Assembly (NCBI GenBank): GCA_018655525.1
Contig: JABIJM010000002.1
Coordinates: 109,575 to 173,574 of the forward strand
DNA: 64,000 nt
Source: Candidatus Woesearchaeota archaeon
GTDB taxonomy: Archaea; Nanobdellota; Nanobdellia; Woesearchaeales; GW2011-AR9
Direction: 5' to 3'
A program made the translations under genes and the position numbers. Below the pieces are notes generated by a model that worked only from the letters and a program-made list of their open reading frames with translations, had not been told where the DNA came from and searched no databases. This document shows positions 2,411 through 29,327 of the stretch, piece by piece. The stretch's first letter is position 1; every line of letters starts with the position of its first letter.

Positions 2411-2414
2411 AATA

Positions 2415-5606: not shown

Positions 5607-5608
5607 AA

Positions 5609-8600: not shown

Positions 8601-10648
8601 CTAGTTGGATTGCAAATCATTGTACAAATGGAAAAAATTGTGATTCGCCTTGCATTGGTACAACAGCAAATGGAGTTTGCACTTCAAATGATGTATTAGA
8701 TCATAAAACAAATGCTGAGATACGAAAAGATGCTGAAGGAAGAGCACCAGCAACTGTTAAAAAGAATAAAAAGGGAGAAGGAGACTTAGGAAATTTAGGA
8801 AAAACTAGTAAAAATAGTCAACTCCCACCAATTACAAGTATTGCAACTGTTGGCATTACAGCTGCAGAAAAATCTAAGTTATTAAATGGTGGATTTAAAC
8901 TTGTAACATCAAGTGCAGGTAAAGTAACTTCTGAACTCAAAGGAGAAAACGGTGATCTCATCACACGTACGTGGGAAACAAATGGTGTGTTAGGAACCAA
9001 ATTCACAGAAAAAAAAGTAGAAAAAGGAAAACCAATCTCGGAAACAACAGAATTTATTGATAAAAATGGAAAAAAGGTTTATACACAAATTACAACAAAA
9101 GATGCAAAAGGAAATGATATCACAAAAGTAAATCATGAAAGTGGTATTTCCTTTAATCCAGATCCTGCAACATGGGATAAGAAAACGGGTTCATGTACAA
9201 AAGGAACTGCCTGTCTAAGAGCAACTTCTGGAGAATTTGCAGGACGTGCGCATTTACAAGCTTCTGAAAATGATTATGATCCCGTTCCATTTACGGTTGA
9301 AGAATTTGGTAAAGGAGATAACATTGAACGAACATTAAGTTATCAAATCATGATTGATGGTAAACTTGTTGAAATCAATGTAGATCAAGAATGTAATAAA
9401 GATTGTGATGCAGGAATAGAATCAGATGAAAGACAAGTAGGATATAAATTATTTACAGCAGATTATACTTCACATTCAACAGATTACACAACAGGAGAAA
9501 GAACTCACTATGAACGAAGCCAAGGATTATTTGGACAAATTCCAAATGGTGTTGGTGTAGGTTGTAATAAAGCTACAAAACAATGTGGTAAAAACTTTTA
9601 CTTTAGTTCTGATAATGATTATGTTTGTACAACACCTAAATGTACAAGTGAAAATGGTGTGGATTTAGATGAACAAGGTGCAGCTTTGGGTTCAGTGGTT
9701 TTAGAGGATGGAAAATTGGCTTCTGAAAAAGAACCAAAATGGCACCAATCAGTTTGTGGTTATGATAAAGCTTGTATTGAAGGTATTCAAGAAACAAACT
9801 CCGATAGATCAACACAACTATTCTTTGCAGGTAAACAAGAATGGCAACAAGCAGGAGCACAGATTCTTAATGGATTTAATGGATGGAGTGGAATCTCAAA
9901 TGCGTTAGTTGGTGATCTTTACGCAAATGAACTTGCATCAGATATTGACAGATGGTTTGCAGGTTCTATACTCTCAGAAGAATATTGGGAATCATCAGTA
10001 TGTTATGAAACGCCTGTAGACACACAGAATGACGGATTTGCATTCATTGAACGTCCGGGTGGAATTACTGGCACAGACTTCGTACCAGTTGCTGCGATTC
10101 AAGCAGAAATGTTTGAAGAGAAAACACCTTTATTATGTATGCATAATTTAGATGAAGAAGCAGAAGATGAATTTGTCTGTCCAAATAATTTATATTGCAA
10201 CCCAGATGACAGTTTCTGTTATGAAAATGAAGATGACGAAACACCAGTTAAAGCATATTTTTATAAAATCAGCTGGGGAGTTACAGCACCTTCAGATTTA
10301 GCATTCACACCATATGGAGATGAATCATCAGCTGTAGAGTTTGATTTAAAATTAGGTGATAAAAGATTAAATGATAAAACAATCAAACTGAAAAATGGTG
10401 AAACTGATAATAATCTGATTACACATTACAGTAATAATGATTATGAAAATGTTCAAGTATGTATCAAGTGGAAAAAAGCACCTATAACATATAGTCGTGG
10501 ATTTGGAAATAGTGGAACAGAACCCGTTAAAGATATTTGCTACACAATCAAAAAAGCAGAAATTGGAAATGTTATATTCACATCTGACACTGCAGCAGAA
10601 TCAGCTTCTGTAAACAATGGAGAAGTTACAATAAGTTCATCATGGTAA
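5609..10648 (+). CDS. Giant secreted protein (1679 aa) with Sel1-like repeat blocks, Cys-knot modules and Pro/Thr-rich linkers
   Basis: Signal peptide MKKLTLIIVLLLMLSSVVYA. Has P/T/Q-rich low-complexity linkers (PPQPTQPDQPQG; AATPTPSPVPPSSAVPTPAPQTPTQ). Two Sel1-like blocks carry paired Cys (xSCxNLGxxY...A/KxxLFKKxCxxG). Each block is followed by a short Cys-rich module (KCPDGVCPTGTTCIG... / HCTNGKNCDSPCIGT...). Starts 3 nt after the upstream ORF. Confidence 0.55.
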   Translation: MKKLTLIIVLLLMLSSVVYAAEEVETNNCDGFWGSLKCFLVGDAENRAGMSWFDRSENLVGFAGVVPDGWQNKPAGIYKGKDGKLYVVGVAKNRGIVDLARKAAIDNAKQQMAEATGESNFKSIAPNQNFKDDKNKLYKTLIVIIPETPGQKTDVLALMKKVGDNGYMPTLEDVPVSPPQPTQPDQPQGATLNKDSVQLTPNDYNTKTPLTKDQYKAKFPDNTPGDYNTYRNIWPSVKFESQVKKNYDVKDVKVQSSTLNGVTTGQITITKKDGTQVKIPYTRDLDDDVDKGKDLDQVVNKYLSQNSNTASLPPKSSTPSPIVVPPLTKTPTSQSVSAPIIVPAKIKSEVKNSGALSLCQPTSQKGLCRVSAGESFNILYKDAEGNFNPVTSIKGKDITYDKSKGTTDHTKVTGAVNILVAKKAGVTGVPATSAPVVVSPTAPAAPTPVPQVIKDLETKCNNDDANACFNLGVKYEFGVSGVDKNIPKSKQLFRKSCLFESGGIACSSALGVDYENKPSIKTYQDKWITQKCPDGVCPTGTTCIGIISSGKCKSNGELTGETVAAMKADVQTANFAEPGAATPTPSPVPPSSAVPTPAPQTPTQISPAQVEAATPQLTDSAKQISIKSNGAGGADILKNNAKITATQGDITVNGVRLDGDKIVVDATKKMLWGAYDGTGDLGSFEKQPDGSVKFIPGDDYNKLEGEQRTDFDEFKDMMVKSPSAFKKVQDTIKSDSIDETVTAPELRDEAKKDVKATLEAKKKAATGGDPTKPTSGEKAKKISQAGGQTPAPTHDKVNEKLLKEGKDLYKRGKIKEAVKKFEEACDKGNGASCANLGNLYGSGSAEIPKDQVKANSLFKKACDDGTAIACNYLGANYQAGEGITKNQAKANELFKKGCENGNAVSCNNLAQNYYHGDGVPSDYDKANNLFEISCNTGNANACASLGYNYQKGLGYTVNKNKAMEHYATSCKLGGDDSYCAAAVGITDADITGVKKYKSSWIANHCTNGKNCDSPCIGTTANGVCTSNDVLDHKTNAEIRKDAEGRAPATVKKNKKGEGDLGNLGKTSKNSQLPPITSIATVGITAAEKSKLLNGGFKLVTSSAGKVTSELKGENGDLITRTWETNGVLGTKFTEKKVEKGKPISETTEFIDKNGKKVYTQITTKDAKGNDITKVNHESGISFNPDPATWDKKTGSCTKGTACLRATSGEFAGRAHLQASENDYDPVPFTVEEFGKGDNIERTLSYQIMIDGKLVEINVDQECNKDCDAGIESDERQVGYKLFTADYTSHSTDYTTGERTHYERSQGLFGQIPNGVGVGCNKATKQCGKNFYFSSDNDYVCTTPKCTSENGVDLDEQGAALGSVVLEDGKLASEKEPKWHQSVCGYDKACIEGIQETNSDRSTQLFFAGKQEWQQAGAQILNGFNGWSGISNALVGDLYANELASDIDRWFAGSILSEEYWESSVCYETPVDTQNDGFAFIERPGGITGTDFVPVAAIQAEMFEEKTPLLCMHNLDEEAEDEFVCPNNLYCNPDDSFCYENEDDETPVKAYFYKISWGVTAPSDLAFTPYGDESSAVEFDLKLGDKRLNDKTIKLKNGETDNNLITHYSNNDYENVQVCIKWKKAPITYSRGFGNSGTEPVKDICYTIKKAEIGNVIFTSDTAAESASVNNGEVTISSSW
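7990..8540 (+). repeat. Four tandem ~36-aa Sel1-like repeats with paired cysteines (coding repeats inside the 1679-aa protein)
   Basis: The four repeat units are GNGASCANLGNLYGSGSAEIPKDQVKANSLFKKACDD, GTAIACNYLGANYQAGEGITKNQAKANELFKKGCEN, GNAVSCNNLAQNYYHGDGVPSDYDKANNLFEISCNT and GNANACASLGYNYQKGLGYTVNKNKAMEHYATSCKL. The periodicity and Cys pairing match the Helicobacter Hcp-type Sel1-like repeat family. A shorter block lies at about 6985-7150. Confidence 0.5.
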
Positions 10649-11499: not shown

Positions 11500-12288
11500 A
11501 TGACACATAAATATTCTCCTTTGATAGCAACAATCATTGCATTATCAGGTTGTACTACTTTTAATTCATGTACTTCCTCACAAAGTGTCATTGAATATCA
11601 TATTGATGAATCACTTCAACCAAAAAGTTCAACTTCTCATACAGTTGTTGAAAAAGTGGTTAAACCAAGGATGCCCAAAATTGTACCAGAATCAGTAACT
11701 AAACCTAAAGGAACACTTTCATTTGGTCGTCCAGTATTTAATGAAAGATATCACAATCAAAATGAGGATTTAGAAGATTTATTGGAAGGACATACAGGTC
11801 AACGAAAAATTGTAATTGATAAATCTGCAAGAGAATTACAGATATACGTTGGTGATGAACTAATTAAATCTTATGGGATTTCATTAAGTAGACGACATCA
11901 ATCTGGGCCTAAACAAAGAAAAGGAGATCTTAAGACACCTGAAGGACATTTTTATGCTGCTCGTAAGAACCCTAATAGTAGATGGCATAAAGCAATTGTA
12001 ATAAGTTATCCTGGTAAAGAAGATGCAATACGTGGATTAAAAAAGGGAATTATAACAAAAAGACAATATACACAAATTTTGAAAGCTCAAGATGAATGTC
12101 GTGAACCTCCAAGAACAAATTTAGGATCTCTGGTAGAAATTCATGGTGCTGGTGGCGGACGATTTTATCAAGATTGGACACATGGTTGTGCTTCATTAAA
12201 TAATAGAGCTATGGATGAAGTTTATAAATTTACATTCACTGGATGTTATAAAGGAAAACCTAAAACTGAAATAATCATTAAGCGATAA
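11500..12288 (+). CDS. Lipoprotein with L,D-transpeptidase (YkuD/ErfK-like) catalytic domain
   Basis: N-terminal hydrophobic segment ends in a lipobox-like LSGC. The C-terminal region carries IHGAGGG-x13-THGCASLNN, which matches the H...[S/T]HGC catalytic signature of L,D-transpeptidases (PF03734). Confidence 0.55.
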   Translation: MTHKYSPLIATIIALSGCTTFNSCTSSQSVIEYHIDESLQPKSSTSHTVVEKVVKPRMPKIVPESVTKPKGTLSFGRPVFNERYHNQNEDLEDLLEGHTGQRKIVIDKSARELQIYVGDELIKSYGISLSRRHQSGPKQRKGDLKTPEGHFYAARKNPNSRWHKAIVISYPGKEDAIRGLKKGIITKRQYTQILKAQDECREPPRTNLGSLVEIHGAGGGRFYQDWTHGCASLNNRAMDEVYKFTFTGCYKGKPKTEIIIKR

Positions 12289-15001
12289 CTTGTTTCTTAA
12301 CATTTTCACATGCAGTTTCTTTTCCTGATGAAACAGCAACACAATTAATTCCTGTTGTTGTATAATACCATTCATTCCCTACTTTTTTATACCACGACCT
12401 TTGATTTAATGTTCGTTCTCCATGAACTGTTTTTAATTTTGAATAAACATTTTCTGTCATATCATCAAAAGAATTTGTAAGTGCAAATTGTTGTTCATAA
12501 TAAGGGGCTTTTCCATCATATCCTTGAATAGTTTGAAGATTAGGATATTTGTCAAGTAACCGTTTTGCACCTATACTGGAATGTTCTCTTATTTTTTGTT
12601 GTATCTCTTTAGAATCAGAAATCTCATTTTTTGGAGATTCTACATCAACTAATGGAGGTCCTTCATCTACTTCAGGACTCGTTAGTGAATTACAAGCACT
12701 AAAATATACATTTTTCACATTACCCTCAGGCATGTTAACAATATTAAAAGTATCAATAGGATTATAATCAGGGTTATCTAAAACTTCTGCTGGAGCAAGA
12801 CTGGATAATTTTGTTGGAGCTTCTCTAAAAAAATAATCACTATCTTTAAAGAAATGCCCTGTTACAACAATATTTTCACTTTTTGTACTTGGAGGTGAAT
12901 CTCTACTATTTACAACAATACATCCCTCAATACGGCATCTACTCTCAAGTAATTGAGCAGTATCGGGATTTTCTCCTGCCATTATTATTGTTGTTTTTGG
13001 CGTCCATGTTTTTCCCACATCAGCTTGGCTTTTACCAGCAGGAGGAATTACTTTCCCATATGCTTTTGCATATTCATATTCACATTCACTTGGAGCGCAT
13101 GTAACAAAACTATTTCTTTTTTTTCGTGACCAACTTCCAGATGAAGATTGATATGGTTTAGAAAAATAATTTTCAACAGCTTTAGGTTGAGTTGTACTTG
13201 AAGACCAATGTTTAACATAAGGTAATTTATCAACAATAACTTTCTCTGTTTTGACAGTCATTGTTGATTGGCCTCGTGAAGGAATAGGAATATGTTTCCC
13301 CCTTCCATCAACATAATCCCAACCATATTTTTTTGTAAATACTAATTTTCCTTCTACTCCATTAATATCTAATGAATTTGGTAACTGTGGTTTTGTATTA
13401 ACATTTTGATTCTTTTTAGGAGGAAGTATTACTCCTTGTTTTTTTGCTAATTCTTGTGCAGCAGTCCTTGAACCAGGATTTTTTGAAATATAAGTTGAAC
13501 TTGAAATTACTTTGTCAGATTCATAAGCATAATCAATTTTTCCAGCTCTAAATTTATTTAAATCTCCTTTTGTTGTAATTTCACCATTAGGGGAGAAAGT
13601 GACTGTTGAACTTTTTTGTAATTTTCGTAATTCTCTTCTAGCATCATTCAAATTAAGTTTACGTATTCTTCTTTTATCTTTTTCAGTAAGATCCATTGAA
13701 ATACTGTCAATTGAGATCTCACCTTGTGATAATCCCTCAACATTTATTTTATCAAAATAGGCTCTAGATGTGAAATCAATTTTTTTTAATTTATTAAATT
13801 CATAAAAACCTAATTCTTCACGGTATGGAGGGTCTGCATTTGCCCCTATTGAATTTACAATACATGGTTTAAATGCACAATAATCACGCGCTTTACTTCC
13901 GGTATTTGTTTTTTCTTCTGAATAAAATATTTTTTGATCTTCTTCATTTACCAAAGAAAAACTTGAAGTTGTTCCTGCAATAATTCCATTACGTCCCATG
14001 ATAAAACTTGTCATTTTGAACTCTTCTCCTTTCTTAGCTAAAATTGTAAATTTATCTCTTAGTAAACGTGGATCATCTTTATCCGCATTTCCATCAATAA
14101 TTGTTCCTGTAATTGTATAACCTGTCGGATTTATATATCCTTCATCTGTTTCATCTTCAGTTGCAAATCTATTGAATGACGTTCCTGAAACCATTAAATT
14201 ATCATATGTAAATTCACCAACATATTTAATTTTAACACCTTCTTGTTCAATAACCATAGCTCCAAATAAAACTTCGCCATCACCCGCGGGAATATTTAAT
14301 GTTTTTACCTTAAAATCTAAATCTGGTAATTTTCCACTTTCCTCATTAGATTTTACATCAACAATTCCACCTACTGTTGTTAAAACTCCATCAGCTTTAC
14401 CTGCACCAACGGTTCCATACATAGAAACACCTTCCTTTAGAACTAATGAACCATCCTCTAAAACCTTTGAATTAGGGAAGTCAGCAATATTAAACCCAGT
14501 TGGTTTTTCTCCATCTGTTAAAACTTTACCATCTTTAAAATCTTTTATTTTTCCACCATTATCTTCTATACCATATTTCCCAAACCATTTCTTTTTTACT
14601 TCAGGTTTATCATTAATTAATGTTGGAGTTTTTTCTATCCTTATATTCATATTTTTAAAAAGTTCATCATTATCAAGCAAATTAGGATCAGATGAAGTTG
14701 CTCTTAGAAAATTCACATCATCAATTTTAACTGCAATAGAAGGGTTGGATTGCATAGCATTTACAAGATTGACTGTACTTATTTCTCCAAAATTTGTGAC
14801 TTGTCCGGATTCAATTGCGGCAGCCAAATCAGGTCCATTCATTTGGTTATAATCAATTGTTACAGGAGTAACTTGTGTCCCTGAACCAGCAACATCAGCT
14901 GTTTGGCCTTGATTTAAAGGTGGTGGAACATAGGTATTAGCGGCATAACTAATCACTGCTAAAATCATACAAATCATTATTATTGTTATAACTTTTTTCA
15001 T
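12278..15001 (-). CDS. Large secreted surface protein (about 907-916 aa)
   Basis: Sec-type signal (MKKVITIIMICMILAVISYAANTY). An alternative upstream ATG at 15028 would add 9 aa. The protein is Gly/Thr/Val-rich and beta-rich. Its 3' end overlaps the 3' end of the plus-strand lipoprotein gene by 11 nt (convergent). It is the second gene of a minus-strand operon headed by the pilin-like gene. Confidence 0.5.
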   Translation of the reverse strand: MKKVITIIMICMILAVISYAANTYVPPPLNQGQTADVAGSGTQVTPVTIDYNQMNGPDLAAAIESGQVTNFGEISTVNLVNAMQSNPSIAVKIDDVNFLRATSSDPNLLDNDELFKNMNIRIEKTPTLINDKPEVKKKWFGKYGIEDNGGKIKDFKDGKVLTDGEKPTGFNIADFPNSKVLEDGSLVLKEGVSMYGTVGAGKADGVLTTVGGIVDVKSNEESGKLPDLDFKVKTLNIPAGDGEVLFGAMVIEQEGVKIKYVGEFTYDNLMVSGTSFNRFATEDETDEGYINPTGYTITGTIIDGNADKDDPRLLRDKFTILAKKGEEFKMTSFIMGRNGIIAGTTSSFSLVNEEDQKIFYSEEKTNTGSKARDYCAFKPCIVNSIGANADPPYREELGFYEFNKLKKIDFTSRAYFDKINVEGLSQGEISIDSISMDLTEKDKRRIRKLNLNDARRELRKLQKSSTVTFSPNGEITTKGDLNKFRAGKIDYAYESDKVISSSTYISKNPGSRTAAQELAKKQGVILPPKKNQNVNTKPQLPNSLDINGVEGKLVFTKKYGWDYVDGRGKHIPIPSRGQSTMTVKTEKVIVDKLPYVKHWSSSTTQPKAVENYFSKPYQSSSGSWSRKKRNSFVTCAPSECEYEYAKAYGKVIPPAGKSQADVGKTWTPKTTIIMAGENPDTAQLLESRCRIEGCIVVNSRDSPPSTKSENIVVTGHFFKDSDYFFREAPTKLSSLAPAEVLDNPDYNPIDTFNIVNMPEGNVKNVYFSACNSLTSPEVDEGPPLVDVESPKNEISDSKEIQQKIREHSSIGAKRLLDKYPNLQTIQGYDGKAPYYEQQFALTNSFDDMTENVYSKLKTVHGERTLNQRSWYKKVGNEWYYTTTGINCVAVSSGKETACENVKKQVIA

Positions 15002-16332
15002 TTGACTTCTAACTCCCACCGTTGCCATGTTGAACCATAATTATTAATTGCATCTACTCTAATATAATGTATTCCTACATTTTCAGGTGAAGGAGTAAAA
15101 TACATTTCTCCAGTCTTATTATTTATTTCAAAAAGGTATGTTCCTGATGAAAAAGATAAAGCACGTTCTGCATTAACTTTTAAAGAAAAGTTTGTGCCAA
15201 CATGTGCAACTTGTTTTTCAATTTTATTCATTTTTGGAGATAATTCATCTTCGATATTAATTGAAATTCGTAATGGGGCTACTTTTTCATTTCCAAAAGG
15301 ATCAATGACTTTTACATAATGTAAATATTCGTCATTACCTAATTTGACAGGATCTAATGAAATCACACCAGAGCTATCAATAGAAAATGTATCAGTATCT
15401 AATTCAAATTGTAATCCTTCGCCGAATGAAGGAACTTTTAATATTTTAATTCCATGCGTAGAAATTTTCCATGTTGGAATTTCATTTAATCCAAAAAATT
15501 CATAAAATAAAATATCTTTTACTGGTGGGATTTCTATTACTTTTTCTTCATCAAACGTCCAGTCAAATCCAAGAGCAAAATTCCATATAAAAGGATTTTG
15601 TCCGTTATCTTCATTTAAAATAATTTCAAAAAGAATATTTTCTCCATTTATACCATAATTTTGAAATTGAACTTGGATCCCCTCGTAAGACAAAGATTCT
15701 GATAGAGAACTTAATAATAATTCTTCCTTCATAGATTGAGTTTTTATAAATGAATTTACTTTTGCATAAGGTCCAATAAATTTTAGAGGAATTGACGTTT
15801 CAAAGACTCTCCGTTCCGCATTTTTTGATCCTAAGCTTACTTTAAAAGGAAATGTTAAATGTGTCATTAATTTTGTGTTTGTAAATTCTGATCTAATTAA
15901 AGGAACTCCGATATTAAATTTATAACCTTCTTTTTCAAAAGATTTGAAATTATTAATACATTCAAGAAATTTTGTTTCACTTATAGATGAAATACTCTCG
16001 GAAAATGTTGATAGTGAAGGAAACATTTTATTACTTTTATGTAAATAGAATGGTACGATTAATTTATCTGAACCTTCATTATATGTGAATCCTGCTAAAG
16101 AAGAACCAATGGTGGTATATCCTCCATTATTTAATACAATTGATGTTGATTCAGTAAGACTTTTTTCAAGACATGAACTTACAAACAATTCAACAGAATC
16201 TATATTAAATTGAACATCAGTAGGTAATTCTTCTATTGATGAAGATTTAACAAGTAAAATAATCAAAGCAGTAACAAATAACAGAATTATTCCTATAATT
16301 ATAAACACCGTAACCTGTCCTCTTTTATTCAT
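14998..16332 (-). CDS. Surface protein with archaeal class III (type IV pilin-like) signal peptide, paralog of the 68..2410 product
   Basis: N-terminus MNKRG|QVTVFIIIGIILLFVTALIIL has a short basic leader, then G-Q and a hydrophobic helix. The following LFVSSCLEKS...LNNGGY region resembles FIEGCVQDT...GEQGGY in the 780-aa protein. Confidence 0.55.
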   Translation of the reverse strand: MNKRGQVTVFIIIGIILLFVTALIILLVKSSSIEELPTDVQFNIDSVELFVSSCLEKSLTESTSIVLNNGGYTTIGSSLAGFTYNEGSDKLIVPFYLHKSNKMFPSLSTFSESISSISETKFLECINNFKSFEKEGYKFNIGVPLIRSEFTNTKLMTHLTFPFKVSLGSKNAERRVFETSIPLKFIGPYAKVNSFIKTQSMKEELLLSSLSESLSYEGIQVQFQNYGINGENILFEIILNEDNGQNPFIWNFALGFDWTFDEEKVIEIPPVKDILFYEFFGLNEIPTWKISTHGIKILKVPSFGEGLQFELDTDTFSIDSSGVISLDPVKLGNDEYLHYVKVIDPFGNEKVAPLRISINIEDELSPKMNKIEKQVAHVGTNFSLKVNAERALSFSSGTYLFEINNKTGEMYFTPSPENVGIHYIRVDAINNYGSTWQRWELEVK

Positions 16333-16430
16333 ACTACATATTAATTCTTTATCGTTTTTATATGTTTCTTAAAAATGAACTAATATATACCAAAAAATAA
16401 CTAAGAAAAGAATAAACTAAAACAATAAAA

Positions 16431-16628
16431 TTAAGATTTCTTAAAAGCACCAGCAGTATCAATTAAATCTACATGACCCATGAATAATCCTCGGCAACAG
16501 TATCGTTCTAAACCTGCATCATCCATAGCTTTTTTCGCGGAATCACCTTTCTCTAACTGATTGTTATATTGTTCCCATAAATGAGCAACTGGTTTTCCAC
16601 ATGTAAAGCATCTAATTGGTATAATCAT
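16431..16628 (-). CDS. rpoN: DNA-directed RNA polymerase subunit N (Rpb10 homolog)
   Basis: MIIPIRCFTCGKPVAHLWEQY with a CxxC...CC zinc motif. It lies downstream of S9 as in the canonical archaeal operon. Confidence 0.9.
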   Translation of the reverse strand: MIIPIRCFTCGKPVAHLWEQYNNQLEKGDSAKKAMDDAGLERYCCRGLFMGHVDLIDTAGAFKKS

Positions 16629-16683
16629 TTTGTTTTTATCTCCATTTTGGGTATGACTTCTGTCTTATTCCGTTAGGAATGAT

Positions 16684-16707
16684 CAGAAATCATCTATATG
16701 ATTTCTG
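16684..16707. promoter_or_regulatory. Perfect 10-bp inverted repeat (cagaaatcat-ctat-atgatttctg) spanning the S9 stop codon
   Basis: Read directly from the sequence. It is a hairpin-capable element between rps9 and rpoN and could act as an RNA processing, attenuation or termination signal. Confidence 0.3.
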
Positions 16708-17082
16708 TCTTTTTGCACGTGCTTTGGAATCGTTTGGTTTACAAACTTCCTTTCTTCGTACATCTGCAACCAATAATAACCTATCGTAGTCATCAAAGGT
16801 TTTCTTAAACTTATTATCGTAAATTACTAAAGCTCTTGCCATAGCTAACCTTGCTGCATCAGCCTGACCATTTTCTCCGCCACCAATAACTGTAACATCA
16901 ATGTTTACTTTCTTTGCAACATCGCCAACTAATACTAAAGGCTCTTTGATTCGTAATCGTGAAATTTCTGTACTATAATTGTCTAAGTACTGTCCATTGA
17001 TTCTTACGTTTCCCTTACCATCACGTAATGTTGCACGTGCAATTGCTTGTTTTCGTTTTCCTTGAGTGTGAATTACTTTCAT
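16690..17082 (-). CDS. rps9: 30S ribosomal protein S9
   Basis: GKRKQAIARATL...GGGENGQADAARLAMARAL...KSYR matches the conserved uS9 family, including the C-terminal YR. Confidence 0.9.
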   Translation of the reverse strand: MKVIHTQGKRKQAIARATLRDGKGNVRINGQYLDNYSTEISRLRIKEPLVLVGDVAKKVNIDVTVIGGGENGQADAARLAMARALVIYDNKFKKTFDDYDRLLLVADVRRKEVCKPNDSKARAKRQKSYR

Positions 17083-17507
17083 TCTTCATTACCGCCTAAT
17101 AAATGTTTAATTAAATGTCCAACTGTAATATATTTTAAAGTTGGTAATTTTTTAACTGATGCGTCTTCAACAGTGATTAACTCCTTTCCTTCAAGTTCAG
17201 CTGGAATTGAAGTGTAACACATAACTCTTTTGTATGCTTCTCTTCCACGAGTTGTATCCCATGGTAACATTCCTCTGATTACTCTACGAACATATCTATC
17301 AGATAAACGAATACGTTTTGCACTTTTTAAAGGATATCCTTTACGTGCTCTTCGTACTTTTTCATTATTTAAAGTTGCTACTTTCTTACCACTGATAATC
17401 ATTTTATCACAATTTACAACATTAACTTCTTCTCCTAAGAGAGCATCTTTTGCAATACGTGTTGCAAGACGTCCAAGTAACATTCCTTCACCGTTGTAAA
17501 CTTTCAT
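17079..17507 (-). CDS. rpl13: 50S ribosomal protein L13
   Basis: uL13 family similarity (GMLLGRLATRIAK...; RGMLPW). Operon position is between L18e and S9. Confidence 0.9.
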   Translation of the reverse strand: MKVYNGEGMLLGRLATRIAKDALLGEEVNVVNCDKMIISGKKVATLNNEKVRRARKGYPLKSAKRIRLSDRYVRRVIRGMLPWDTTRGREAYKRVMCYTSIPAELEGKELITVEDASVKKLPTLKYITVGHLIKHLLGGNEE

Positions 17508-17508
17508 T

Positions 17509-17859
17509 TTATCCTAAAATCCTCACTTTTTTTCCTTCCGGATTTTGTTCTAATAATTCTTTGATTGTCATAATTTTTCCATTTGCTTGTTCAATTTTTT
17601 TCTTAGCTTCTGCTGAGAAATTGAATGCTGCAACATCAACTTTTTTACTCATTTCACCTAAACTTAATACTTTTCCAGGAACTAAAACCATTTCTCCTTC
17701 TCTCGCATATTTGTCAATTTTGTAAACATTTACGCTTCTTCGTTGACGAGATGATTTTGTTAAATCCTTTACAACACGTCTCCAAAATGGGCTCTCAACT
17801 ATTTTAGGTTCTAGAGCTTTTAAAAGTTCAATTAATTCATAGTTAGTTGTACCTTTCAT
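17509..17859 (-). CDS. rpl18e: 50S ribosomal protein L18e
   Basis: Archaeal/eukaryotic L18e family by sequence similarity and canonical position between rpoD and rpl13. Confidence 0.8.
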   Translation of the reverse strand: MKGTTNYELIELLKALEPKIVESPFWRRVVKDLTKSSRQRRSVNVYKIDKYAREGEMVLVPGKVLSLGEMSKKVDVAAFNFSAEAKKKIEQANGKIMTIKELLEQNPEGKKVRILG

Positions 17860-18629
17860 TAAATTAACTTCTCCATTTCTTCAACTTTATTAAGTAAGAT
17901 TTCTGCTGATTGTGATAAAATTTCTCTACAACTTAATTGGCCCCAACTTTCTAAGTTGAATACAATGTCATCTGAGTATGTTACATCAATTCCTTCTAAT
18001 GCATCATATTGTTCTAATAAATAACTCTGATAAACTTTTTCTTCATTAACGGTAACTTTTCCGCCACTAATTTTGAAAACACCGTCAGCGTTGATTTTTT
18101 CTAATGCTTCTGCATTTACATTTCCAACTTTGATACTACCTGATTTTCTATAAAATGCCCAACCTGGTGCCCATTTCACATGATCTTTACCTTGACCCAT
18201 TACTGCAGTCATTGTAATATCAAGCTTTTGTTTTGCTAATAATCGTACAACAGGAGTGTCTTCATATACAAATGTACATTTTGGATCGCTACTTTCAGCT
18301 TCTCCAGCTAAGACATTTCCTTTTTTAGATGATTTTAATTTGATTTGAAGTGTACATCGTGCACTTTTCTCAGTTACTTCATCTTCATTTTCAGGAAGTC
18401 TGTAACTTTTTAAATCTGTTTTGATAGGTAATAATCCAATTCGTAATGCTAACATTTCATCAAATAATGCTGATCCGTTCTCTTTAATTTCAAGATCTTC
18501 TGCAGCTAATGTAGGAACTTCTTCTAAGACTAGTCTACGTACAGTGTTTGCAAACACTTCGTTTGTACCTTTCATTAAGAAGGTTAACTTTCCGTCCTTT
18601 TTCTTATCTTGAAGTTTTTCTAATTTCAT
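17859..18629 (-). CDS. rpoD: DNA-directed RNA polymerase subunit D (Rpb3 homolog)
   Basis: Rpb3/RpoD-like sequence with canonical position after S11 in the archaeal operon. Confidence 0.85.
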   Translation of the reverse strand: MKLEKLQDKKKDGKLTFLMKGTNEVFANTVRRLVLEEVPTLAAEDLEIKENGSALFDEMLALRIGLLPIKTDLKSYRLPENEDEVTEKSARCTLQIKLKSSKKGNVLAGEAESSDPKCTFVYEDTPVVRLLAKQKLDITMTAVMGQGKDHVKWAPGWAFYRKSGSIKVGNVNAEALEKINADGVFKISGGKVTVNEEKVYQSYLLEQYDALEGIDVTYSDDIVFNLESWGQLSCREILSQSAEILLNKVEEMEKLI

Positions 18630-18632
18630 ATT

Positions 18633-19103
18633 CTAAACTCTACGTCCTCTACGTCCACCTTTAGCTCTACAGCCATTGTGTGGTTCTGGTGTTACTTCTT
18701 CAATTTTTCCAATTCGTAAACCAATACGTGAGAATGTTCTAATTGCTGCTTGAGCTCCAGGACCTGGACTTTTAGGACCATTGTGACCACCTTTAGCTCT
18801 AACTTTGATATATAAACCGTTAATTCCTTTTTCTTTACAAATTTCTGCAACTTTTCTAGCCGCACCCATTGCAGCAGAAGGTGAACTTTCTAATCTGTCA
18901 GCTTTTACAACTTGTCCACCAGATGATCGTGCAATAGTTTCTGTTCCTGTGATATCTGTAACTGTAATAATTGTATTGTTGTATGAAGAATAAATGTGTG
19001 CAACGCCCCATCTCATGTTTTTATGGAAGGTTCTTGGAGCTCTATTTTGATCTGGTCTCCTTCGTGGAGGTCCTCTACTATTATTTTGTGGTGGTGGGCT
19101 CAT
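18633..19103 (-). CDS. rps11: 30S ribosomal protein S11
   Basis: [22 protein letters not shown]...[18 protein letters not shown] matches the conserved uS11 core. It has a basic N-terminal extension; an alternative start is the internal Met of MRWGVAH. Confidence 0.85.
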
Positions 19104-19768
19104 TCTTCTTTAACCTCTTTTGGTGTGTCTTCTTTAACTTCAGAGACTTCCTTTTCTTCTTTAGGGGTTTCAGAAACCTCTTCTACTGGAGCTTCTTCAG
19201 ATTTTTCTTCCTTAATAGGTTTAACAGCTTCAGCTTCTTTATGAATCTCTTTAGCTTCATTTTTCCTTTCAGGGTGATCTTCGTTAAATAATGCTGATTT
19301 TCCTCTAAAATTTAATTTTGATTCTTCTTCTAATGAAATTAAGCATGAAGGGAATGTGATCTCTTTGTCACCAATTGCAATATGTCTGTGTACAATAAAT
19401 TGACGTGCTTGATTCATTGATCGTGCTAAACCTTTTCTAAATACAACACTTTGTATTCTTCGTTCTAAAACACTCTCAACATTTAATGCAAGAATTTGAT
19501 CTAACTCTGCACCTGCGTTTAATAATCCTAACCCTTGTAATTTTCCAAGAACTTGACTTTCTTCTTTTTCTGATTGTTCTGTTTGTGATGCAATTAATCT
19601 TTTTGCAATATTTTTATATTTCTTTAAGAAAGAGTTCGCAATCATAATTTCCTGCTTTTTTCGTAATCCAAATTCTTTTGTGATCACTTTTTCTTCATCA
19701 ATAGCAGATTTAATCCACGGATGTCGCGGAGTTGCGTACTTTTTTCGTAATTTTTTTGGATCTCCCAT
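19100..19768 (-). CDS. rps4: 30S ribosomal protein S4 with Lys/Glu-rich C-terminal tail
   Basis: uS4 N-terminal and S4 domains (PRHPW...; [15 protein letters not shown]). The C-terminal ~45 aa is a KE-rich low-complexity extension ([22 protein letters not shown]...). Confidence 0.85.
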
Positions 19769-19776
19769 TTTTATTA

Positions 19777-20241
19777 TTATTTACCTTTCCTTTTAACTCC
19801 AACAACCTTTCCTTTGGTTTTTCTGAAGTTTGATCGTGTTCGTTGACCACGTACTGGTAATTTCTTCCCATGACGTACTCCACGTAATGATTTGATTTTT
19901 TTCAATCGTTTTAAATCGTTATCTTGAGTAAAAACTAAATCTCCTGTTAAAATATGTTTGTTTTCTCCAGTTTCGTAATCCTTACGTCTATTAAGCATCC
20001 ATACCGGCATACCTGCTGATTGTGGATTTTTAACAATCTCATTTAATTTTTGGATTTCTGTATCAGAAAGGTTACCTACTTTTTGGTTTTTTTCAACATT
20101 TGCTAAAGTACATACAATACCTGCAAACTGCATACCAACACCTTTAATTTTAGTTAACGCAATTTTTACTGCCTTTTCCCCAGGTACATCTACGTTTGCA
20201 ACACGTACAATATGTTTGAAATTATTTTGATTTTCTACCAT
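19777..20241 (-). CDS. rps13: 30S ribosomal protein S13
   Basis: uS13 family (FKHIVRVANVDVPGEK...; C-terminal RGQRTRSN...KGK). It is the first gene of the operon. Confidence 0.9.
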   Translation of the reverse strand: MVENQNNFKHIVRVANVDVPGEKAVKIALTKIKGVGMQFAGIVCTLANVEKNQKVGNLSDTEIQKLNEIVKNPQSAGMPVWMLNRRKDYETGENKHILTGDLVFTQDNDLKRLKKIKSLRGVRHGKKLPVRGQRTRSNFRKTKGKVVGVKRKGK

Positions 20242-20402
20242 TTTATAATTTTCAGAGAATTCACATTTACCTACCCTATACGCGTGAACTCGGGCTGAAT
20301 ATACGAAAGAGAAGCAGGTTGTTTATAAAGCTTTGCTTTTAGAAAGCTCAAAACATTAGTTTTGTTGCTATCGGAAAAACCTTGTTTTTTGTTAGCTTTC
20401 CT

Positions 20403-21854
20403 TTAGGATGGCTTAATCTGTGGATTTTGTTGGTTTTCTTCCTTATCCCCTTCTTTCTTTGGTTCAATTGAAACCTCAGAGCCATGTTCCTTATCTACAA
20501 TGACTTTCTTCTTTTTCCGACCATCTTCTTGCATCTTTAAATCACGTAAATGTCGCTTCCAACGATTCATAGTATAATTAACAGGGTTCTTGATATGGCT
20601 ACACAACATATCTTTCTCACATATGCCCATATCTACGTAATACGCTGCATTATCGCAATTTGGAGGTAACTTTTCACCTGCTTTATAATGATGCATCTGA
20701 CCGCGAATATAGCCTTCTCGTAATGGCTCTGGATTCTTAGAGTTCCACACCATCAAATACTTCTCAACTTCAGGTTTACTCCATCCAACTTTACCAAGAT
20801 AATTCATCATTGCAAATAATGTCCTTTTCTTACCGTCTTCAATACCAAGTAATGCTTTCTTAATGCAAGGAGGAAAAAAGATCTCTTGAATTGGATTTTC
20901 CAGTTTTACTTCTTGAAATTGTTTTTCTGTTTCAATCTGTCTTTTTTCATCTATTTTTGCAGCATAATCTAATGCATTTTTAAGAATCCTAGTCCCACTT
21001 TCATCAGAAACCTCACGACCTAGAAATGTAAACTCAGAAGGGATTATTTTATCTGGGTGAGCCATAGGCTTTTCAAATTCCATCACTTTAGAAGGATCAA
21101 TTGGGAGACTTGCTAATCCAGATTTCTCATGTAATGAATAAGGCATACGATAGAGGTGTCTTGATGAAATTAATACAGTGTCAATCTCCAAAAATTTGTC
21201 GACGTTAAGTTTTGATATTTTGTCGCCCATGGGGTTGGTAGAATAACGAATAATTTCTTCTTCTTTTAGCCCCACTTTTTCTTTAATTTTTCCAAAACTA
21301 CCCTCTAATTCCATAATTCTTCTTCCTAGTTCCTCGTCAATATGATCTCGGATATATAATGCAATCTTTTTAGGAAATTCAGGAAACTGTTCGCTTGTTA
21401 TAATCTCACCTACCCTTTCTGGAAACGCTTCAAAAGGCACACCAATATGGAACCCCTTATTTCCTGAAAACTTACAGCTAATGGCGTCTTCTTTCACGTG
21501 GTTAAATCTAAGAAATTTAATAATTAAATCAGCACAAATCTTACTATAATCCATAAATGGGCAATCGATATCTAACACTAAATCCCATCCGATTCTCTCT
21601 TCATTCATCTCCTTCCGCCTCATATCGGAGTGAATGTTCAAAGGATTTTGCCATCGTTCCTCGGAGGCATGTAGCGACGTTAAACCTCTTTTAGCAAAAT
21701 CAAATACATCACGAGGATAATTTAATACATCTGGTCTTTTTCCAAAAAATGTATCAAACCTTGTGCCAACCTCTTTATCGCGGGCATGTTTGATAATCTC
21801 GTTTTGAATATCTTCACGTTTATAGTACTTTAGAAGCGTGCTTTTGGTGAGCAT
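20403..21854 (-). CDS. priS: DNA primase small catalytic subunit PriS with Cys-rich C-terminal extension
   Basis: Archaeo-eukaryotic primase motifs are present (LVLDIDCPF; SGNKGFHIGVP; RHLYRMPYSLHEKSG). The 483-aa length and the C-terminal ~150 aa with four Cys (PPCIKK...; PPNCDN...GICEKDMLCSH) suggest a fused accessory or Fe-S domain. Confidence 0.8.
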   Translation of the reverse strand: MLTKSTLLKYYKREDIQNEIIKHARDKEVGTRFDTFFGKRPDVLNYPRDVFDFAKRGLTSLHASEERWQNPLNIHSDMRRKEMNEERIGWDLVLDIDCPFMDYSKICADLIIKFLRFNHVKEDAISCKFSGNKGFHIGVPFEAFPERVGEIITSEQFPEFPKKIALYIRDHIDEELGRRIMELEGSFGKIKEKVGLKEEEIIRYSTNPMGDKISKLNVDKFLEIDTVLISSRHLYRMPYSLHEKSGLASLPIDPSKVMEFEKPMAHPDKIIPSEFTFLGREVSDESGTRILKNALDYAAKIDEKRQIETEKQFQEVKLENPIQEIFFPPCIKKALLGIEDGKKRTLFAMMNYLGKVGWSKPEVEKYLMVWNSKNPEPLREGYIRGQMHHYKAGEKLPPNCDNAAYYVDMGICEKDMLCSHIKNPVNYTMNRWKRHLRDLKMQEDGRKKKKVIVDKEHGSEVSIEPKKEGDKEENQQNPQIKPS

Positions 21855-21885
21855 GTAATTTAGAAGGTTATCTGGTTAATATAGT

Positions 21886-22437
21886 TTATGGATTGATTAG
21901 TATCATAGCTTCAGGTGCCGTAAATCTAGGGTCTCCATAATTCAAACGAAGGCGTTCATTAACATCTGTGATGATGTCCGACTCCCCAATATTGTAAATT
22001 CTTGCTTCTAATGGCCCTTTTGTTGCTTTAAAAATAGGAGTGTGTTTTTGGTTCAATGTAAGATCTGGGATTAAAAGGGCGACCCTCTCCTCATTTAAAC
22101 CTCTTTTGAAGTTAATGCCAATGCAAAAGTCAAGAGTGGTGTATCCTCTGTTACATAACAAATCTATGCATCTTGAAAATGCCTCTATGTATGCTCTCTG
22201 GGGCTCACCAAGGGTAGAATTCCATTCTTGGATAGCAAAATATTTTCCTAGGCCAATTTCGCCTACTAAACAAAGTGAAATGTCAGCCTTACTGGCTACG
22301 AAATGGAATGGATTTTCTATATCTTTTCTTTGATTTTTTTTAGATAATAAAAAATATTCTCTCAACCTCTCCATTAATTCAGTAGATTTTTCTACCTCGT
22401 ACTTAATTCTTTGAGAATGATTAAATAAAAGCGACAT
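21886..22437 (-). CDS. Hypothetical protein, possibly a GINS subunit (Gins51-like), proposed from synteny with priS
   Basis: A 183-aa ORF immediately downstream of priS, an arrangement typical for archaeal GINS. Sequence similarity is not confidently recognised. Confidence 0.3.
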   Translation of the reverse strand: MSLLFNHSQRIKYEVEKSTELMERLREYFLLSKKNQRKDIENPFHFVASKADISLCLVGEIGLGKYFAIQEWNSTLGEPQRAYIEAFSRCIDLLCNRGYTTLDFCIGINFKRGLNEERVALLIPDLTLNQKHTPIFKATKGPLEARIYNIGESDIITDVNERLRLNYGDPRFTAPEAMILINP

Positions 22438-22438
22438 T

Positions 22439-22708
22439 TTACAAACTTTTAACTTCTTTTGCGAAATCTTTAGCTTGACTTTTCATGGATTTTAAAGCTT
22501 CTTTCAAAGCTTTTCTAGGGTCAGTTCCTTTTGTTTCAAGAATAAAGGTAGGGACTCCAATTAAAGGATGATCAATTTTATAACTTACCGTTTCGACACC
22601 CTTTACTTCTTGTAAAGATCTCTTTAAAAGATTACAGAATGTGTGTGTTTCGTCTTTAAGTTCAAAAACAAGTTTTGTTTTACTTTCTTCTTTAACGTTA
22701 AATTCCAT
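22439..22708 (-). CDS. rpoL: DNA-directed RNA polymerase subunit L (Rpb11 homolog)
   Basis: EDHTFCNLLKRSLQEVKGVETVSYKIDHPLIGVPTFILETKG is characteristic of RpoL/Rpb11. The start is taken at the internal Met (MEFNVKEE); the six-frame ORF extends to 22762. Confidence 0.75.
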   Translation of the reverse strand: MEFNVKEESKTKLVFELKDETHTFCNLLKRSLQEVKGVETVSYKIDHPLIGVPTFILETKGTDPRKALKEALKSMKSQAKDFAKEVKSL

Positions 22709-22884
22709 TATAATCCCTAAATTGATGATTTGTTTATAAAGTTTTCCATGAGAGAAGTTCAAAACTGAAGAATCTTATGCACTAAAATTTCATTTGAAAT
22801 TTTTGGCATCCTAAAAATTCGTAATCCAGAAAAACGTTCCTTCGTGTCTGCCTTTAATGTGGGGCGGACCGTTTTTACAAATTT

Positions 22885-28496: not shown

Positions 28497-29327
28497 ATGG
28501 ATATAAGAAAAAATCATGATTTACGGTTAAGAACATATGATCATTTAATCAAACTTAAAAAACAAGGCATTTCAAGAAAAAAAATTATTGATTTAACTTA
28601 TGATAATTATAAAATTTCAATTGGAACATTATATTCATGGTATTCGGGGAATAAACCTTATGGAAGGAAAGATAATGTTGTTTATGTACCAGAATTGTTT
28701 TATGTTTTAGGAGCACTTTTAGGGGATGGTTGTCCATACCAATGGAAAATTACAAATAATTATGTTATTCTTGTAGGTGATAATAATTTTACAACAAAAT
28801 ATTCAAATAAACTTGCTTCTTGTATTAAAAAAATTGATAAACCATATATTGACAGAAGTAAAAATGTTTGGTTTGTAAGATCTAATAATTATGAATTGTT
28901 TACTCTTTTTAAAAAATCGCGTGAAAATAATGATTTTCTTAAAAAAATGATTAATAAAGAAAAACATTTATCATCTATTTTTTTTGTTGAAGGTTTCTTT
29001 GATGCTGAAGGCTGTGTCAAAATAATTAAAGAAAAAACAAGAAAAATACCAAAAATTTGTCTTGATTTTACAAATACAGACTTTAAGATTCTTGAAGTAA
29101 TTAAACTAATTCTTAAAGAAAATCTTGGAATTGATGCAAGGTATTCTGAACAAAAATCTTATGTTGGGAGAGATGGATCTTATAGAAAAAAGTGTTATCA
29201 TCTTAGAATTTACAAAAAGAATTATGTTAAAATATTCTTAGAAAATATTCACACAACAAAATTAACAAATAAAAAAGCAACTTTGGTCAAAAAATGGATT
29301 AAAAAAATAAAAATTAAGCAGTTTTAA
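28497..29327 (+). CDS. Free-standing LAGLIDADG homing-endonuclease-like protein with N-terminal HTH-like region
   Basis: Two LAGLIDADG-type motifs are present, LFYVLGALLGDGC and FFVEGFFDAEGCV. It is not embedded in an intein or intron host gene. The sequence is Lys/Asn-rich. Confidence 0.6.
   Translation: MDIRKNHDLRLRTYDHLIKLKKQGISRKKIIDLTYDNYKISIGTLYSWYSGNKPYGRKDNVVYVPELFYVLGALLGDGCPYQWKITNNYVILVGDNNFTTKYSNKLASCIKKIDKPYIDRSKNVWFVRSNNYELFTLFKKSRENNDFLKKMINKEKHLSSIFFVEGFFDAEGCVKIIKEKTRKIPKICLDFTNTDFKILEVIKLILKENLGIDARYSEQKSYVGRDGSYRKKCYHLRIYKKNYVKIFLENIHTTKLTNKKATLVKKWIKKIKIKQF

Follow-up and report, generated by a model that had tools for sequence, protein, structure and literature searches.

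A single-chain PriS-PriL primase of the DPANN Cluster 2 type and the rare gene beside it in a Woesearchaeota-type genome

Introduction

A 64-kb stretch of archaeal DNA (the window, by which we mean the whole stretch that was analysed) carries the gene of a primase of 483 aa and, next to it, an open reading frame of 183 aa, referred to here as orf183. This locus raises the question of whether the long C-terminal extension of the primase is a domain of the PriL type, so that both parts of the enzyme are joined in one chain, and whether the adjacent gene encodes another component of the replication machinery. A sequence-only reading had suggested a further case of the fused PriS-PriL primases of nanosized archaea, accompanied by a Gins51-like subunit. 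The analysis reported here makes it highly probable that the locus combines a single-chain fused primase of DPANN Cluster 2 with a neighbouring gene which is rare, fast-evolving and not a GINS gene.

Locus and gene order

The ORF list of the window contains both frames, of 483 aa and 183 aa, and the gene order on the minus strand is rpoL, orf183, primase, rps13, rps4, rps11 and rpoD. Since both genes are read from the minus strand, orf183 lies upstream (5') of the primase gene, and its placement downstream in the sequence-only reading had to be reversed. The genes at the centre of this study are the following.

22439..22708, minus strand: rpoL, RNA polymerase subunit L, 89 aa counted from the ATG (PF13656, E 1.6e-18; NCBIfam RpoL; orthologues of 89 aa)
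21886..22437, minus strand: orf183, lineage-specific orphan protein gene, 183 aa (database searches, homologue survey)
21855..21885, minus strand: spacer of 31 nt between the two genes, in which an A/T-rich TATA-like box, ACTATATTAAC (21875..21885), lies 5' of the primase ATG
20403..21854, minus strand: gene for a monomeric fused PriS-PriL(CTD) DNA primase, 483 aa (Pfam, NCBIfam, homologues, AF2 model)

The locus is not an assembly artefact, since the region is 100% identical in two independent public assemblies. One of them (L009) spans window positions 22558..19984, including both junctions of orf183, and the other (L003, a Logan contig) spans positions 21915..14403, breaking off 27 nt within the 3' end of orf183. 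The stop codon of rpoL is separated by 1 nt from the ATG of orf183. The box motif, in the form A[CT]TATATTAAC, recurs approximately 18-26 nt 5' of the primase ATG in four relatives (L001, L004, L005 and L006), and from this sequence pattern we infer that the box may be the promoter of the primase gene. In each close relative examined, the primase gene was held within the rpoL-primase-S13-S4-S11-rpoD cluster, and among 80 GTDB species loci (the best 80 of at least 353), 57 have rpoL upstream of it and on its strand.

Architecture of the fused primase

The primase can be divided into four parts.

21060..21854, minus strand: PriS-type AEP catalytic domain, aa 1 to approximately 265 (invariant residues in 52 homologues; Foldseek)
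20895..21059, minus strand: inter-domain linker, aa approximately 266-320, in which a long predicted helix (aa 288-313) leads into a flexible loop (AF2 model)
20520..20894, minus strand: PriL C-terminal (4Fe-4S) domain, aa approximately 321-445 (cysteine alignment, conservation)
20403..20519, minus strand: Lys/Glu-rich C-terminal tail, predicted to be disordered, aa 446-483 plus the stop codon (pLDDT, alignment)

The PriS family of Pfam (PF01896) was matched at aa 119-253 with 28.4 bits (cut-off 26.8), while the PriL family (PF04104) was matched at aa 292-407 with an E value of 2e-4 and 21.2 bits, slightly under its gathering score of 22.4. The PriL model NF002588 of NCBIfam was matched at aa 290-452 (E 4.5e-11), over model positions 193-352 of 360. 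Altogether five NCBIfam PriL models match the primase, in every case through their C-terminal halves. These alignments start at approximately model position 193-220, and the N-terminal, PriS-binding domain of PriL is absent, the linker helix being found instead. Together with the alignment to Pyrococcus abyssi PriL described below, the Pfam and NCBIfam matches bear out the proposal that the C-terminal extension is a four-Cys domain of the PriL-CTD type. Judged from its sequence, the protein is a fusion of the PriS catalytic domain with the C-terminal Fe-S domain of PriL, from which the PriL N-terminal domain is missing.

In the AF2 model of the primase (mean pLDDT 86), an AEP fold is followed by the linker helix (aa 288-313) and by a C-terminal domain which is helical; pLDDT values fall below 50 at aa 312-316 and aa 451-483. 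The C-terminal tail is also variable and poorly conserved in the alignment of homologues. When the whole model was used in Foldseek searches, PriS, human Pri1 and other AEP structures were retrieved with a probability of 1.00. All of these matches concern the catalytic domain, and the top ones include bacterial Prim-PolC and LigD polymerase domains. Because the catalytic domain dominates the Foldseek result, the C-terminal domain is not separately confirmed by structure.

The latter matches, and the frequent occurrence of monomeric AEP fusions on the plasmids and viruses of archaea (PMC3973330, PMC10250227), would fit a primase-polymerase of a mobile element or virus, similar to the PriS-helix-bundle fusions of pRN1 and pTN2, which had become integrated in the chromosome and was not the cellular primase. 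We regard such an origin as extremely unlikely. The gene lies in a conserved cluster of rpoL, ribosomal protein genes and rpoD across relatives whose primases are 42-87% identical, its composition resembles that of its neighbours, no helicase or integrase genes adjoin it, and its C-terminal domain matches models of cellular PriL.

The fused primase belongs to a large family. More than 3454 homologues, of 436-531 aa, were found in Woesearchaeota/Nanoarchaeota MAGs, and relatives are present in 353 species representatives of GTDB. The closest database homologues, with 54-88% identity, are annotated as Candidatus Woesearchaeota, Nanoarchaeota or Nanoarchaeia, and the best full-length match reaches 86%. 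Neither tblastn, nor a CTD profile, nor Pfam searches of 30 other ORFs revealed a second PriS or PriL-CTD in the 64-kb window. According to the literature, the fused form occurs in every Cluster 2 DPANN genome surveyed, and N. equitans has no other AEP domain.

Catalytic motifs and the four cysteines

All three AEP motifs (DxD, sGxxGxH and hxxRxPxSxH) are present in the primase. The first comprises D95 and D97 (nt 21564..21572), the second reads SGNKGFH and contains H136 (nt 21447..21449), and the third, RHLYRMPYSLH, lies within RHLYRMPYSLHEKSG (aa 232-246). D95, D97, H136, R232, H233, R236 and S240 are invariant in 52 of 52 primase homologues. Between the catalytic motifs lies a helical stretch (aa 159-201).

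The primase contains seven cysteines, three of which (C98, C107 and C127) are located within the catalytic domain, where a canonical four-ligand zinc knuckle could not be seen by eye in the PriS part. The other four occur in the motifs that had been quoted for them, which were found verbatim: C330 in FFPPCIKK, and C400, C412 and C418 in PPNCDNAAYYVDMGICEKDMLCSH. Their codons, on the minus strand, are 20865..20867, 20655..20657, 20619..20621 and 20601..20603, respectively. C330, C400 and C418 are conserved in 52/52 homologues, and C412 in 47/52.

An alignment of the C-terminal part to PriL-CTD, which had been proposed as a check, placed these four residues opposite C230, C339, C350 and C356 of P. 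abyssi PriL (9f26_B; numbers counted from the HMMER alignment). The two proteins align at FPPC[IV]K and at PPNCD..C..D..C...NP. P. abyssi PriL was matched by the profile of the primase family with an E value of 3.5e-5; individually, the PDB sequence matches are weak (E 3e-3 to 3.5e-5). Three further residues, K342, R344 and F347, are found at positions +12, +14 and +17 from C330. R344 and F347 are invariant in the 52 homologues, and position 342 is occupied by K in 49 of them and by R in the remaining 3.

Comparison with known primases and a proposed mechanism

In the canonical PriS/PriL heterodimer, represented by P. abyssi (PDB 9f26), the catalytic fold and motifs are the same as in the window primase, and the cysteine motifs of its PriL-CTD (FPPCVK and PPNCD..C..D..C...NP) align with those described above. 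However, the P. abyssi enzyme consists of two polypeptides, whereas the window primase is a single polypeptide devoid of the PriL N-terminal domain.

A closer counterpart is NEQ395 of Nanoarchaeum equitans, a biochemically characterised enzyme in which PriS and PriL are fused (Iyer et al. 2005; Schneider, Bergsch and Lipps 2023, PMC10250227). In this enzyme D87, D89 and H125 are essential for activity, C289, C364, C376 and C384 bind a 4Fe-4S cluster, efficient priming needs R301, R303 and F306, the primers are about 9 nt long, and the linker consists of a helix and a flexible loop (PMC10250227). Both proteins unite a PriS catalytic domain, a helical linker and the Fe-S C-terminal domain of PriL in one chain, both have the DxD and H catalytic residues, and both lack the N-terminal domain of PriL. 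The spacing of the cysteines is 70-12-6 in the window primase and 75-12-8 in NEQ395. K342, R344 and F347 have the same offsets from C330 as R301, R303 and F306 of NEQ395 have from its first cysteine, C289, a correspondence made by offset. The whole comparison is based on the residue numbers given in the NEQ395 paper. The window primase is about 90 aa longer (483 aa versus 393 aa). It has a Lys/Glu-rich tail of 38 aa, predicted to be disordered, and the helical stretch at aa 159-201. A further difference is that the window primase comes from a mesophile-like, Woesearchaeota-type genome with 32% GC.

The fusion has been described in N. equitans and in further nanosized archaea (Raymann et al. 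2014, PMC3914693). Fused priS-priL has been reported to be universal in Undinarchaeota and in DPANN Cluster 2, to which Woesearchaeota belong, and to be a derived trait that both groups share (Dombrowski et al. 2020, PMC7414124). The fused primases of these lineages form the same family as the window primase, with no difference of substance. The kind of protein had thus been recognised correctly by the sequence-only reading, but the locus is not an independent further case, as the trait is reported to be clade-wide (PMC7414124). The fused architecture is already published, is a hallmark of the lineage and is ordinary for DPANN Cluster 2.

The 483-aa gene product is most probably the chromosomal replicative primase of a DPANN Cluster 2 (Woesearchaeota/Nanoarchaeota-type) archaeon, in the single-chain form that typifies the clade. 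By analogy with NEQ395, D95, D97 and H136 would support metal-dependent polymerisation of NTPs, while the PriL-CTD, probably required for dinucleotide initiation, would grip the initiating nucleotide and the primer's 5' end via K342, R344 and F347. If the window primase behaves like its counterpart, the PriS and PriL-CTD domains would be functional in cis only, and the length of the linker may influence that of the primer. C330, C400, C412 and C418 are the predicted ligands of a [4Fe-4S] cluster, whose role would be structural or regulatory rather than catalytic. Both Fe-S binding and primase activity may therefore be expected of the 483-aa protein as a monomer, as far as conserved residues and the NEQ395 precedent can predict.

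The neighbouring gene orf183

Another feature of this locus is orf183, which is a real, very rare and fast-evolving protein gene. Its product has no match in Pfam, NCBIfam, PDB (searched with the single sequence and with a profile), PHROG or PADLOC, and no evidence of a known fold or motif was found; its secondary structure, predicted with low confidence, is helix-strand-helix-strand. Among 5.8 billion clustered and 1.84 billion representative proteins it has two homologues, P0122 and the ORF at 4700-5236 of L088. P0122 is 33-35% identical to orf183 over its full length. The L088 ORF was matched in hhalign with a P value of 6.8e-5 and 20.2 bits, the maximum in 2000 shuffles being 7.1 bits. A further database entry, P0121, is a fragment of orf183 from the same organism as the window, and when viral contigs, phage records, GTDB genomes and JGI metagenomes were scanned with orf183, the 100% identical L009 was the sole match.

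Several other candidates were tried and rejected. Kinase-like, GNAT-like and PD-(D/E)xK-like motifs noticed in orf183 by eye (LLIPDLTLN, IITDVNE) do not fit in their spacing or conserved residues and lack profile support. Two other occupants of the slot, the 138-aa ORF of L007 and L014 and a small kinase-like family (L016, L032 and L058), are unrelated to orf183, with hhalign probabilities of 0.13 and 0.12, respectively.

At the corresponding locus of relatives whose primases are 83-87% identical to that of the window, orf183 is absent, and in the closest ones rpoL abuts the primase gene. The public protein collections yielded no further homologue from these relatives or from other genomes. 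Remnants of the gene were not detected in relatives by tblastn, a weak negative, since the same method also missed the true relationship with P0122.

These data bear directly on the suggestion that orf183 is a highly divergent Gins51 (Gins15), placed beside the primase as in PCNA-PriS-Gins15 clusters. The genes of Gins15 and PriS lie next to each other in Crenarchaeota, Methanosarcinales and haloarchaea, and GINS proteins are so divergent that some were found through their gene neighbourhood (PMC2643942). Moreover, a length of 183 aa would suit Gins51, and all three members of the orf183 family either have a fused primase gene beside them or occupy the same slot. On the other hand, orf183, P0122 and the L088 homologue gave no GINS/Sld5 match (PF05916) in Pfam or NCBIfam at E values up to 0.1 or 10, and orf183 has no sequence match in PDB; the PHROGs and PADLOC searches were likewise empty. 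The alternating helices and strands, predicted with low confidence, would not be those of an all-helical A domain, which GINS proteins combine with a small beta-rich B domain. GINS51 is a core component that occurs nearly universally and in single copy (PMC3914693), whereas orf183 is missing from relatives with very similar primases and has two homologues; its distribution is therefore a misfit with a near-universal core replication protein. The resemblance to archaeal Gins51 thus comes down to a similar length and to the GINS-primase neighbourhood of other archaea, while sequence, profiles and distribution lend it no support, the gene being dispensable in close relatives and near-unique among public sequences. 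We therefore did not retain the Gins51 assignment, which is very unlikely to be correct.

The position of orf183 directly after rpoL, with a gap of 1 nt, brings to mind Csl4, the cap protein of the exosome, of which it might be a remnant or a divergent form. The csl4 gene neighbours rpoL in many archaea, the length of orf183, about 180 aa, is similar to that of archaeal Csl4, and DPANN Cluster 2 has been reported to be without Csl4. However, orf183 gave no match to the S1, ECR1_N or EXOSC1 families of Pfam at E values up to 10, and it contains neither the zinc-ribbon pattern of cysteines nor any CxxC pairs, so that both expected signals (S1 and Zn-ribbon) are missing. Moreover, its L088 homologue does not adjoin rpoL, and the gene is absent in almost all relatives. 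The chance that orf183 is Csl4 is negligible.

Gene insertion beside the primase and a possible partner

The surroundings of the primase gene vary considerably between species. Among the 57 of 80 GTDB loci with rpoL upstream, the gap between rpoL and the primase gene was shorter than 225 nt in 23 and measured 353-2564 nt in 34 (again for the best 80 of at least 353). The larger gaps hold genes for HPPK, toxin-antitoxin pairs and small kinase-like or orphan ORFs, none of them related to orf183. In other species both slots next to the primase gene are hypervariable, and a HAD hydrolase is also among their cargo. A modest point is that, within the rpoL-primase-S13 cluster, lineage-specific genes have their insertion hot spots in the gaps on either side of the primase gene.

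Against this background, two explanations of the adjacency can be weighed. Two of the three members of the orf183 family are located between rpoL and the next gene, and one lies just downstream of a primase. All three (orf183, P0122 and the L088 ORF) are 1-65 nt from a neighbouring gene and share the strand of the primase. As every member adjoins a fused primase or occupies the same slot, there may be a functional link: orf183 could represent a small, fast-evolving accessory family which works with the monomeric primase, for example as an adaptor replacing the lost contacts of the PriL N-terminal domain. The full-length, collinear similarity within the family is real, two different arrangements are represented, and the GC content of orf183 (35.7%) matches that of the primase (36.2%). 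Nevertheless, the three members amount to no more than two independent arrangements, close relatives dispense with the gene, no fold or motif speaks for such a role, and both flanking slots accept unrelated cargo elsewhere (HPPK, toxin-antitoxin pairs, kinase-like ORFs and the HAD hydrolase), so the adjacency could be coincidental. We assign a small probability to the accessory function. The broader proposal, that orf183, P0122 and the L088 ORF make up an unnoticed, extremely fast-evolving family of small proteins which is genetically tied to the monomeric DPANN primase and could, as an optional adaptor or regulator, connect that primase with the replisome in some lineages, has a slim chance of being right. 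Most likely, orf183 is dispensable lineage-specific cargo and not a core replication factor.

Conclusions

To conclude, the fused primase adds nothing new in itself; it confirms that the genome behind the window is one of DPANN Cluster 2 (Woesearchaeota-type), and the enzyme may offer a further, mesophilic model of the minimal archaeo-eukaryotic primase. What goes beyond the literature consulted are the insertion hot spots beside the primase gene, and the finding that orf183 is near-unique and occurs solely beside fused primases or in the same slot. Should orf183 and the primase prove to be functionally linked, this would suggest that the monomeric primase has a hitherto unrecognised partner.

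The fused primase

Two adjoining genes of the window were analyzed:

20403..21854, minus strand: 483-aa ORF, fused PriS-PriL DNA primase (ORF listing)
21886..22437, minus strand: 183-aa ORF, orf183 (ORF listing)

The two ORFs and the Cys-containing peptides of the primase extension are present as described in the sequence-only reading (ORF listing, exact peptide match). As both genes lie on the minus strand, orf183 is placed 5' (upstream) of the primase gene, and not downstream of it as had been claimed. Genes occur here in the order rpoL, orf183, primase, rps13, rps4, rps11, rpoD.

The proposal that this primase combines PriS and PriL in one polypeptide was upheld by Pfam, NCBIfam and PDB matches. 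PF01896 (PriS) matches aa 119-253, and PF04104 (PriL) aa 292-407 (E 2e-4, slightly below the gathering score). NCBIfam PriS models match the N-terminal part of the protein, and five PriL models match residues ~290-452 through their C-terminal halves only (top match E 4.5e-11, model positions 193-352 of 360). The extension contains C330 (in FFPPCIKK) and C400, C412 and C418 (in PPNCDNAAYYVDMGICEKDMLCSH). The top PDB-sequence match is Pyrococcus abyssi PriL (9f26_B), with the aligned motifs FPPC[IV]K and PPNCD..C..D..C...NP; all four Cys residues are therefore opposite PriL Cys residues.

Across 52 aligned family members, D95, D97, H136, C330, R344, F347, C400 and C418 show no variation, and C412 is kept in 47. 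According to the AlphaFold2 model built on this alignment (mean pLDDT 86), residues 1-~265 form an alpha/beta catalytic domain and residues 288-313 a long helix, after which come a flexible loop, a C-terminal domain that is helical (aa ~329-443) and a Lys/Glu-rich, disordered tail (aa 451-483). When the PDB was searched with Foldseek, structures of PriS, of human Pri1 and of other AEPs came back at a probability of 1.00, but the catalytic domain dominates this search, which thus adds nothing on the C-terminal one.

The best studied counterpart is NEQ395 of Nanoarchaeum equitans, a monomer which binds a [4Fe-4S] cluster via C289, C364, C376 and C384, requires D87, D89 and H125, and depends for initiation on its PriL domain together with R301, R303 and F306 (Schneider et al. 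2023, PMC10250227). Its domains do not complement each other in trans, primers terminate preferentially at ~9 nucleotides, a shorter linker results in more prematurely aborted primers, and activity in vitro does not require the cluster (PMC10250227). The features of NEQ395 are matched in the window protein at corresponding offsets: the Cys spacing is 70-12-6 (75-12-8 in NEQ395), and K342, R344 and F347 lie at +12, +14 and +17 from the first Cys, exactly as R301, R303 and F306 do. The most divergent fused primase fetched (L088, 2866..4635; 42% identity) carries a PriS-domain insertion with the Cys pairs CSEC, CPKC, CEKC and CSC, which looks like a zinc-ribbon module and is absent from the window protein.

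Family and genomic setting of the primase

The suggestion that this may be "another case" of fusion is correct, but the trait is published and clade-wide. The short primase of N. equitans was recognized as a PriS catalytic domain fused to the PriL Fe-S domain (Iyer et al. 2005, recounted by Raymann et al. 2014, PMC3914693), the same type was found in Parvarchaeota and Nanohaloarchaea (Raymann et al. 2014, PMC3914693), and the fusion has been treated as a synapomorphy of Undinarchaeota and DPANN Cluster 2, the latter explicitly taking in Woesearchaeota (Dombrowski et al., PMC7414124). We found more than 3454 homologues in a large protein collection, all of 436-531 aa (those named by source being called Woesearchaeota, Nanoarchaeota or Nanoarchaeia), and relatives encoded by 353 GTDB species representatives; the closest full-length match is 86% identical. 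The window primase is therefore one more addition to a very large family that is already known and whose architecture is well described.

The gene is chromosomal, not mobile. Every close relative examined shares the cluster rpoL, primase, S13, S4, S11, rpoD, L18e, L13, S9, rpoN; of the 80 GTDB loci surveyed (L012-L091, the best 80 of at least 353), 57 have rpoL 5' of the primase gene and on its strand. The GC content of the primase gene agrees with that of its neighbours, and no second PriS or PriL-CTD was detectable within the 64-kb window. Many GTDB records with a DPANN-type fused primase (e.g. L014, L015, L017) are titled "uncultured Methanosarcinales archaeon", which looks like a submitter taxonomy label at odds with gene content.

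Other features of the window

Several further features were recorded:

68..10648, plus strand: three very large ORFs in a row (780, 1063 and 1679 aa), the sole Pfam match being Sel1 repeats in the third
12278..15028, minus strand: 916-aa ORF, no Pfam match
28497..29327, plus strand: free-standing 276-aa ORF with a LAGLIDADG_3 domain (E 2.8e-11), which may be a homing-endonuclease-like gene
44018..45340 (plus), 45415..46998 (minus) and 53397..54680 (plus): three DEAD-box helicase paralogues in 11 kb

The rpoL ORF called mechanically (22439..22762, minus strand) has a TTG start and 107 aa. Its orthologues have 89 aa, a length that fits an internal ATG at 22708, which suggests that the true gene is probably 22439..22708.

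orf183, a rare and fast-evolving gene

The region is matched at 100% identity by two independent public assemblies, L009 (JGI Ga0233429), which covers both orf183 junctions, and L003 (Logan run SRR3725726). Pfam, NCBIfam, PDB sequences, PHROGs and PADLOC yielded no match to orf183, and none emerged from 5.8 billion proteins in a word-indexed search. Only two matches resulted when 1.84 billion representatives were scanned exhaustively with HMMER: P0121, a fragment 99% identical to orf183, and P0122 (184 aa), with 33-35% full-length identity (BLASTP pairwise E 2e-25). tblastn missed the latter relationship despite this E-value, and tools that confirm hits by tblastn may therefore overlook distant members of the family. 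P0122 is encoded on a 980-nt contig directly 3' of an 89-aa rpoL, with the same 1-nt gap as in orf183, and the next gene begins past a 31-nt gap, equal to that 3' of orf183. A third member (L088:4700-5236, 178 aa), directly downstream of the divergent fused primase, came to light when a profile search was restricted by synteny to the ORFs surrounding 80 fused-primase loci; it is collinear with orf183 over 168 columns (hhalign P 6.8e-5) and scored 20.2 bits, against a maximum of 7.1 bits in 2000 shuffles. On these grounds, orf183 is a real protein gene, and one that evolves fast.

orf183 is missing from the rpoL-primase gap of the closest relatives (L001/L012, L004/L013 and L005; primase 83-87% identical), in which 37 nt separate the rpoL stop codon from the primase ATG; alignment with them reveals a clean presence/absence difference of ~555 nt. 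The 30.6-kb contig L003 starts at window position 21915, so that its end falls 27 nt within the 3' end of orf183, near the right-hand boundary of this difference; a population that is heterogeneous for orf183 may account for this break.

A Gins51-like identity had been proposed for orf183. Gins51 is a near-universal core replication factor (PMC3914693), and we rejected this reading because of the patchy distribution of orf183 and the absence of any GINS signal in these searches.

Variable cargo around the primase gene

Of the 57 GTDB loci in which rpoL lies 5' of the primase gene, 23 have the two genes directly adjacent (37-221 nt), and in 34 they are 353-2564 nt apart. ORFs were extracted from 22 of these larger gaps (those up to ~1.1 kb), and their contents are unrelated to one another and to orf183:

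L040, L063: HPPK (E 9e-42 for L040; L063 assigned by similarity to L040)
L026: candidate toxin-antitoxin pair (judged by eye)
L016 (159 aa), L058 (164 aa), L032 (165 aa): small, conserved ORF family with weak kinase-like Pfam matches (APH E 0.003, RIO1 E 0.08)
other extracted gaps: several orphan ORFs

The ~160-aa family resembles a minimal atypical-kinase-like protein and is unrelated to orf183 (hhalign probability 0.12). Variability extends to the gap 3' of the primase gene, where L007 has a HAD hydrolase and L010 a PIN/RHH pair.

The rpoL-primase gap (window 21855..22438; L012-L091) is a hot spot of lineage-specific gene content. The variable cargo on both flanks of the primase gene weakens the case for a functional tie between the orf183 family and the primase, which is conceivable but improbable.
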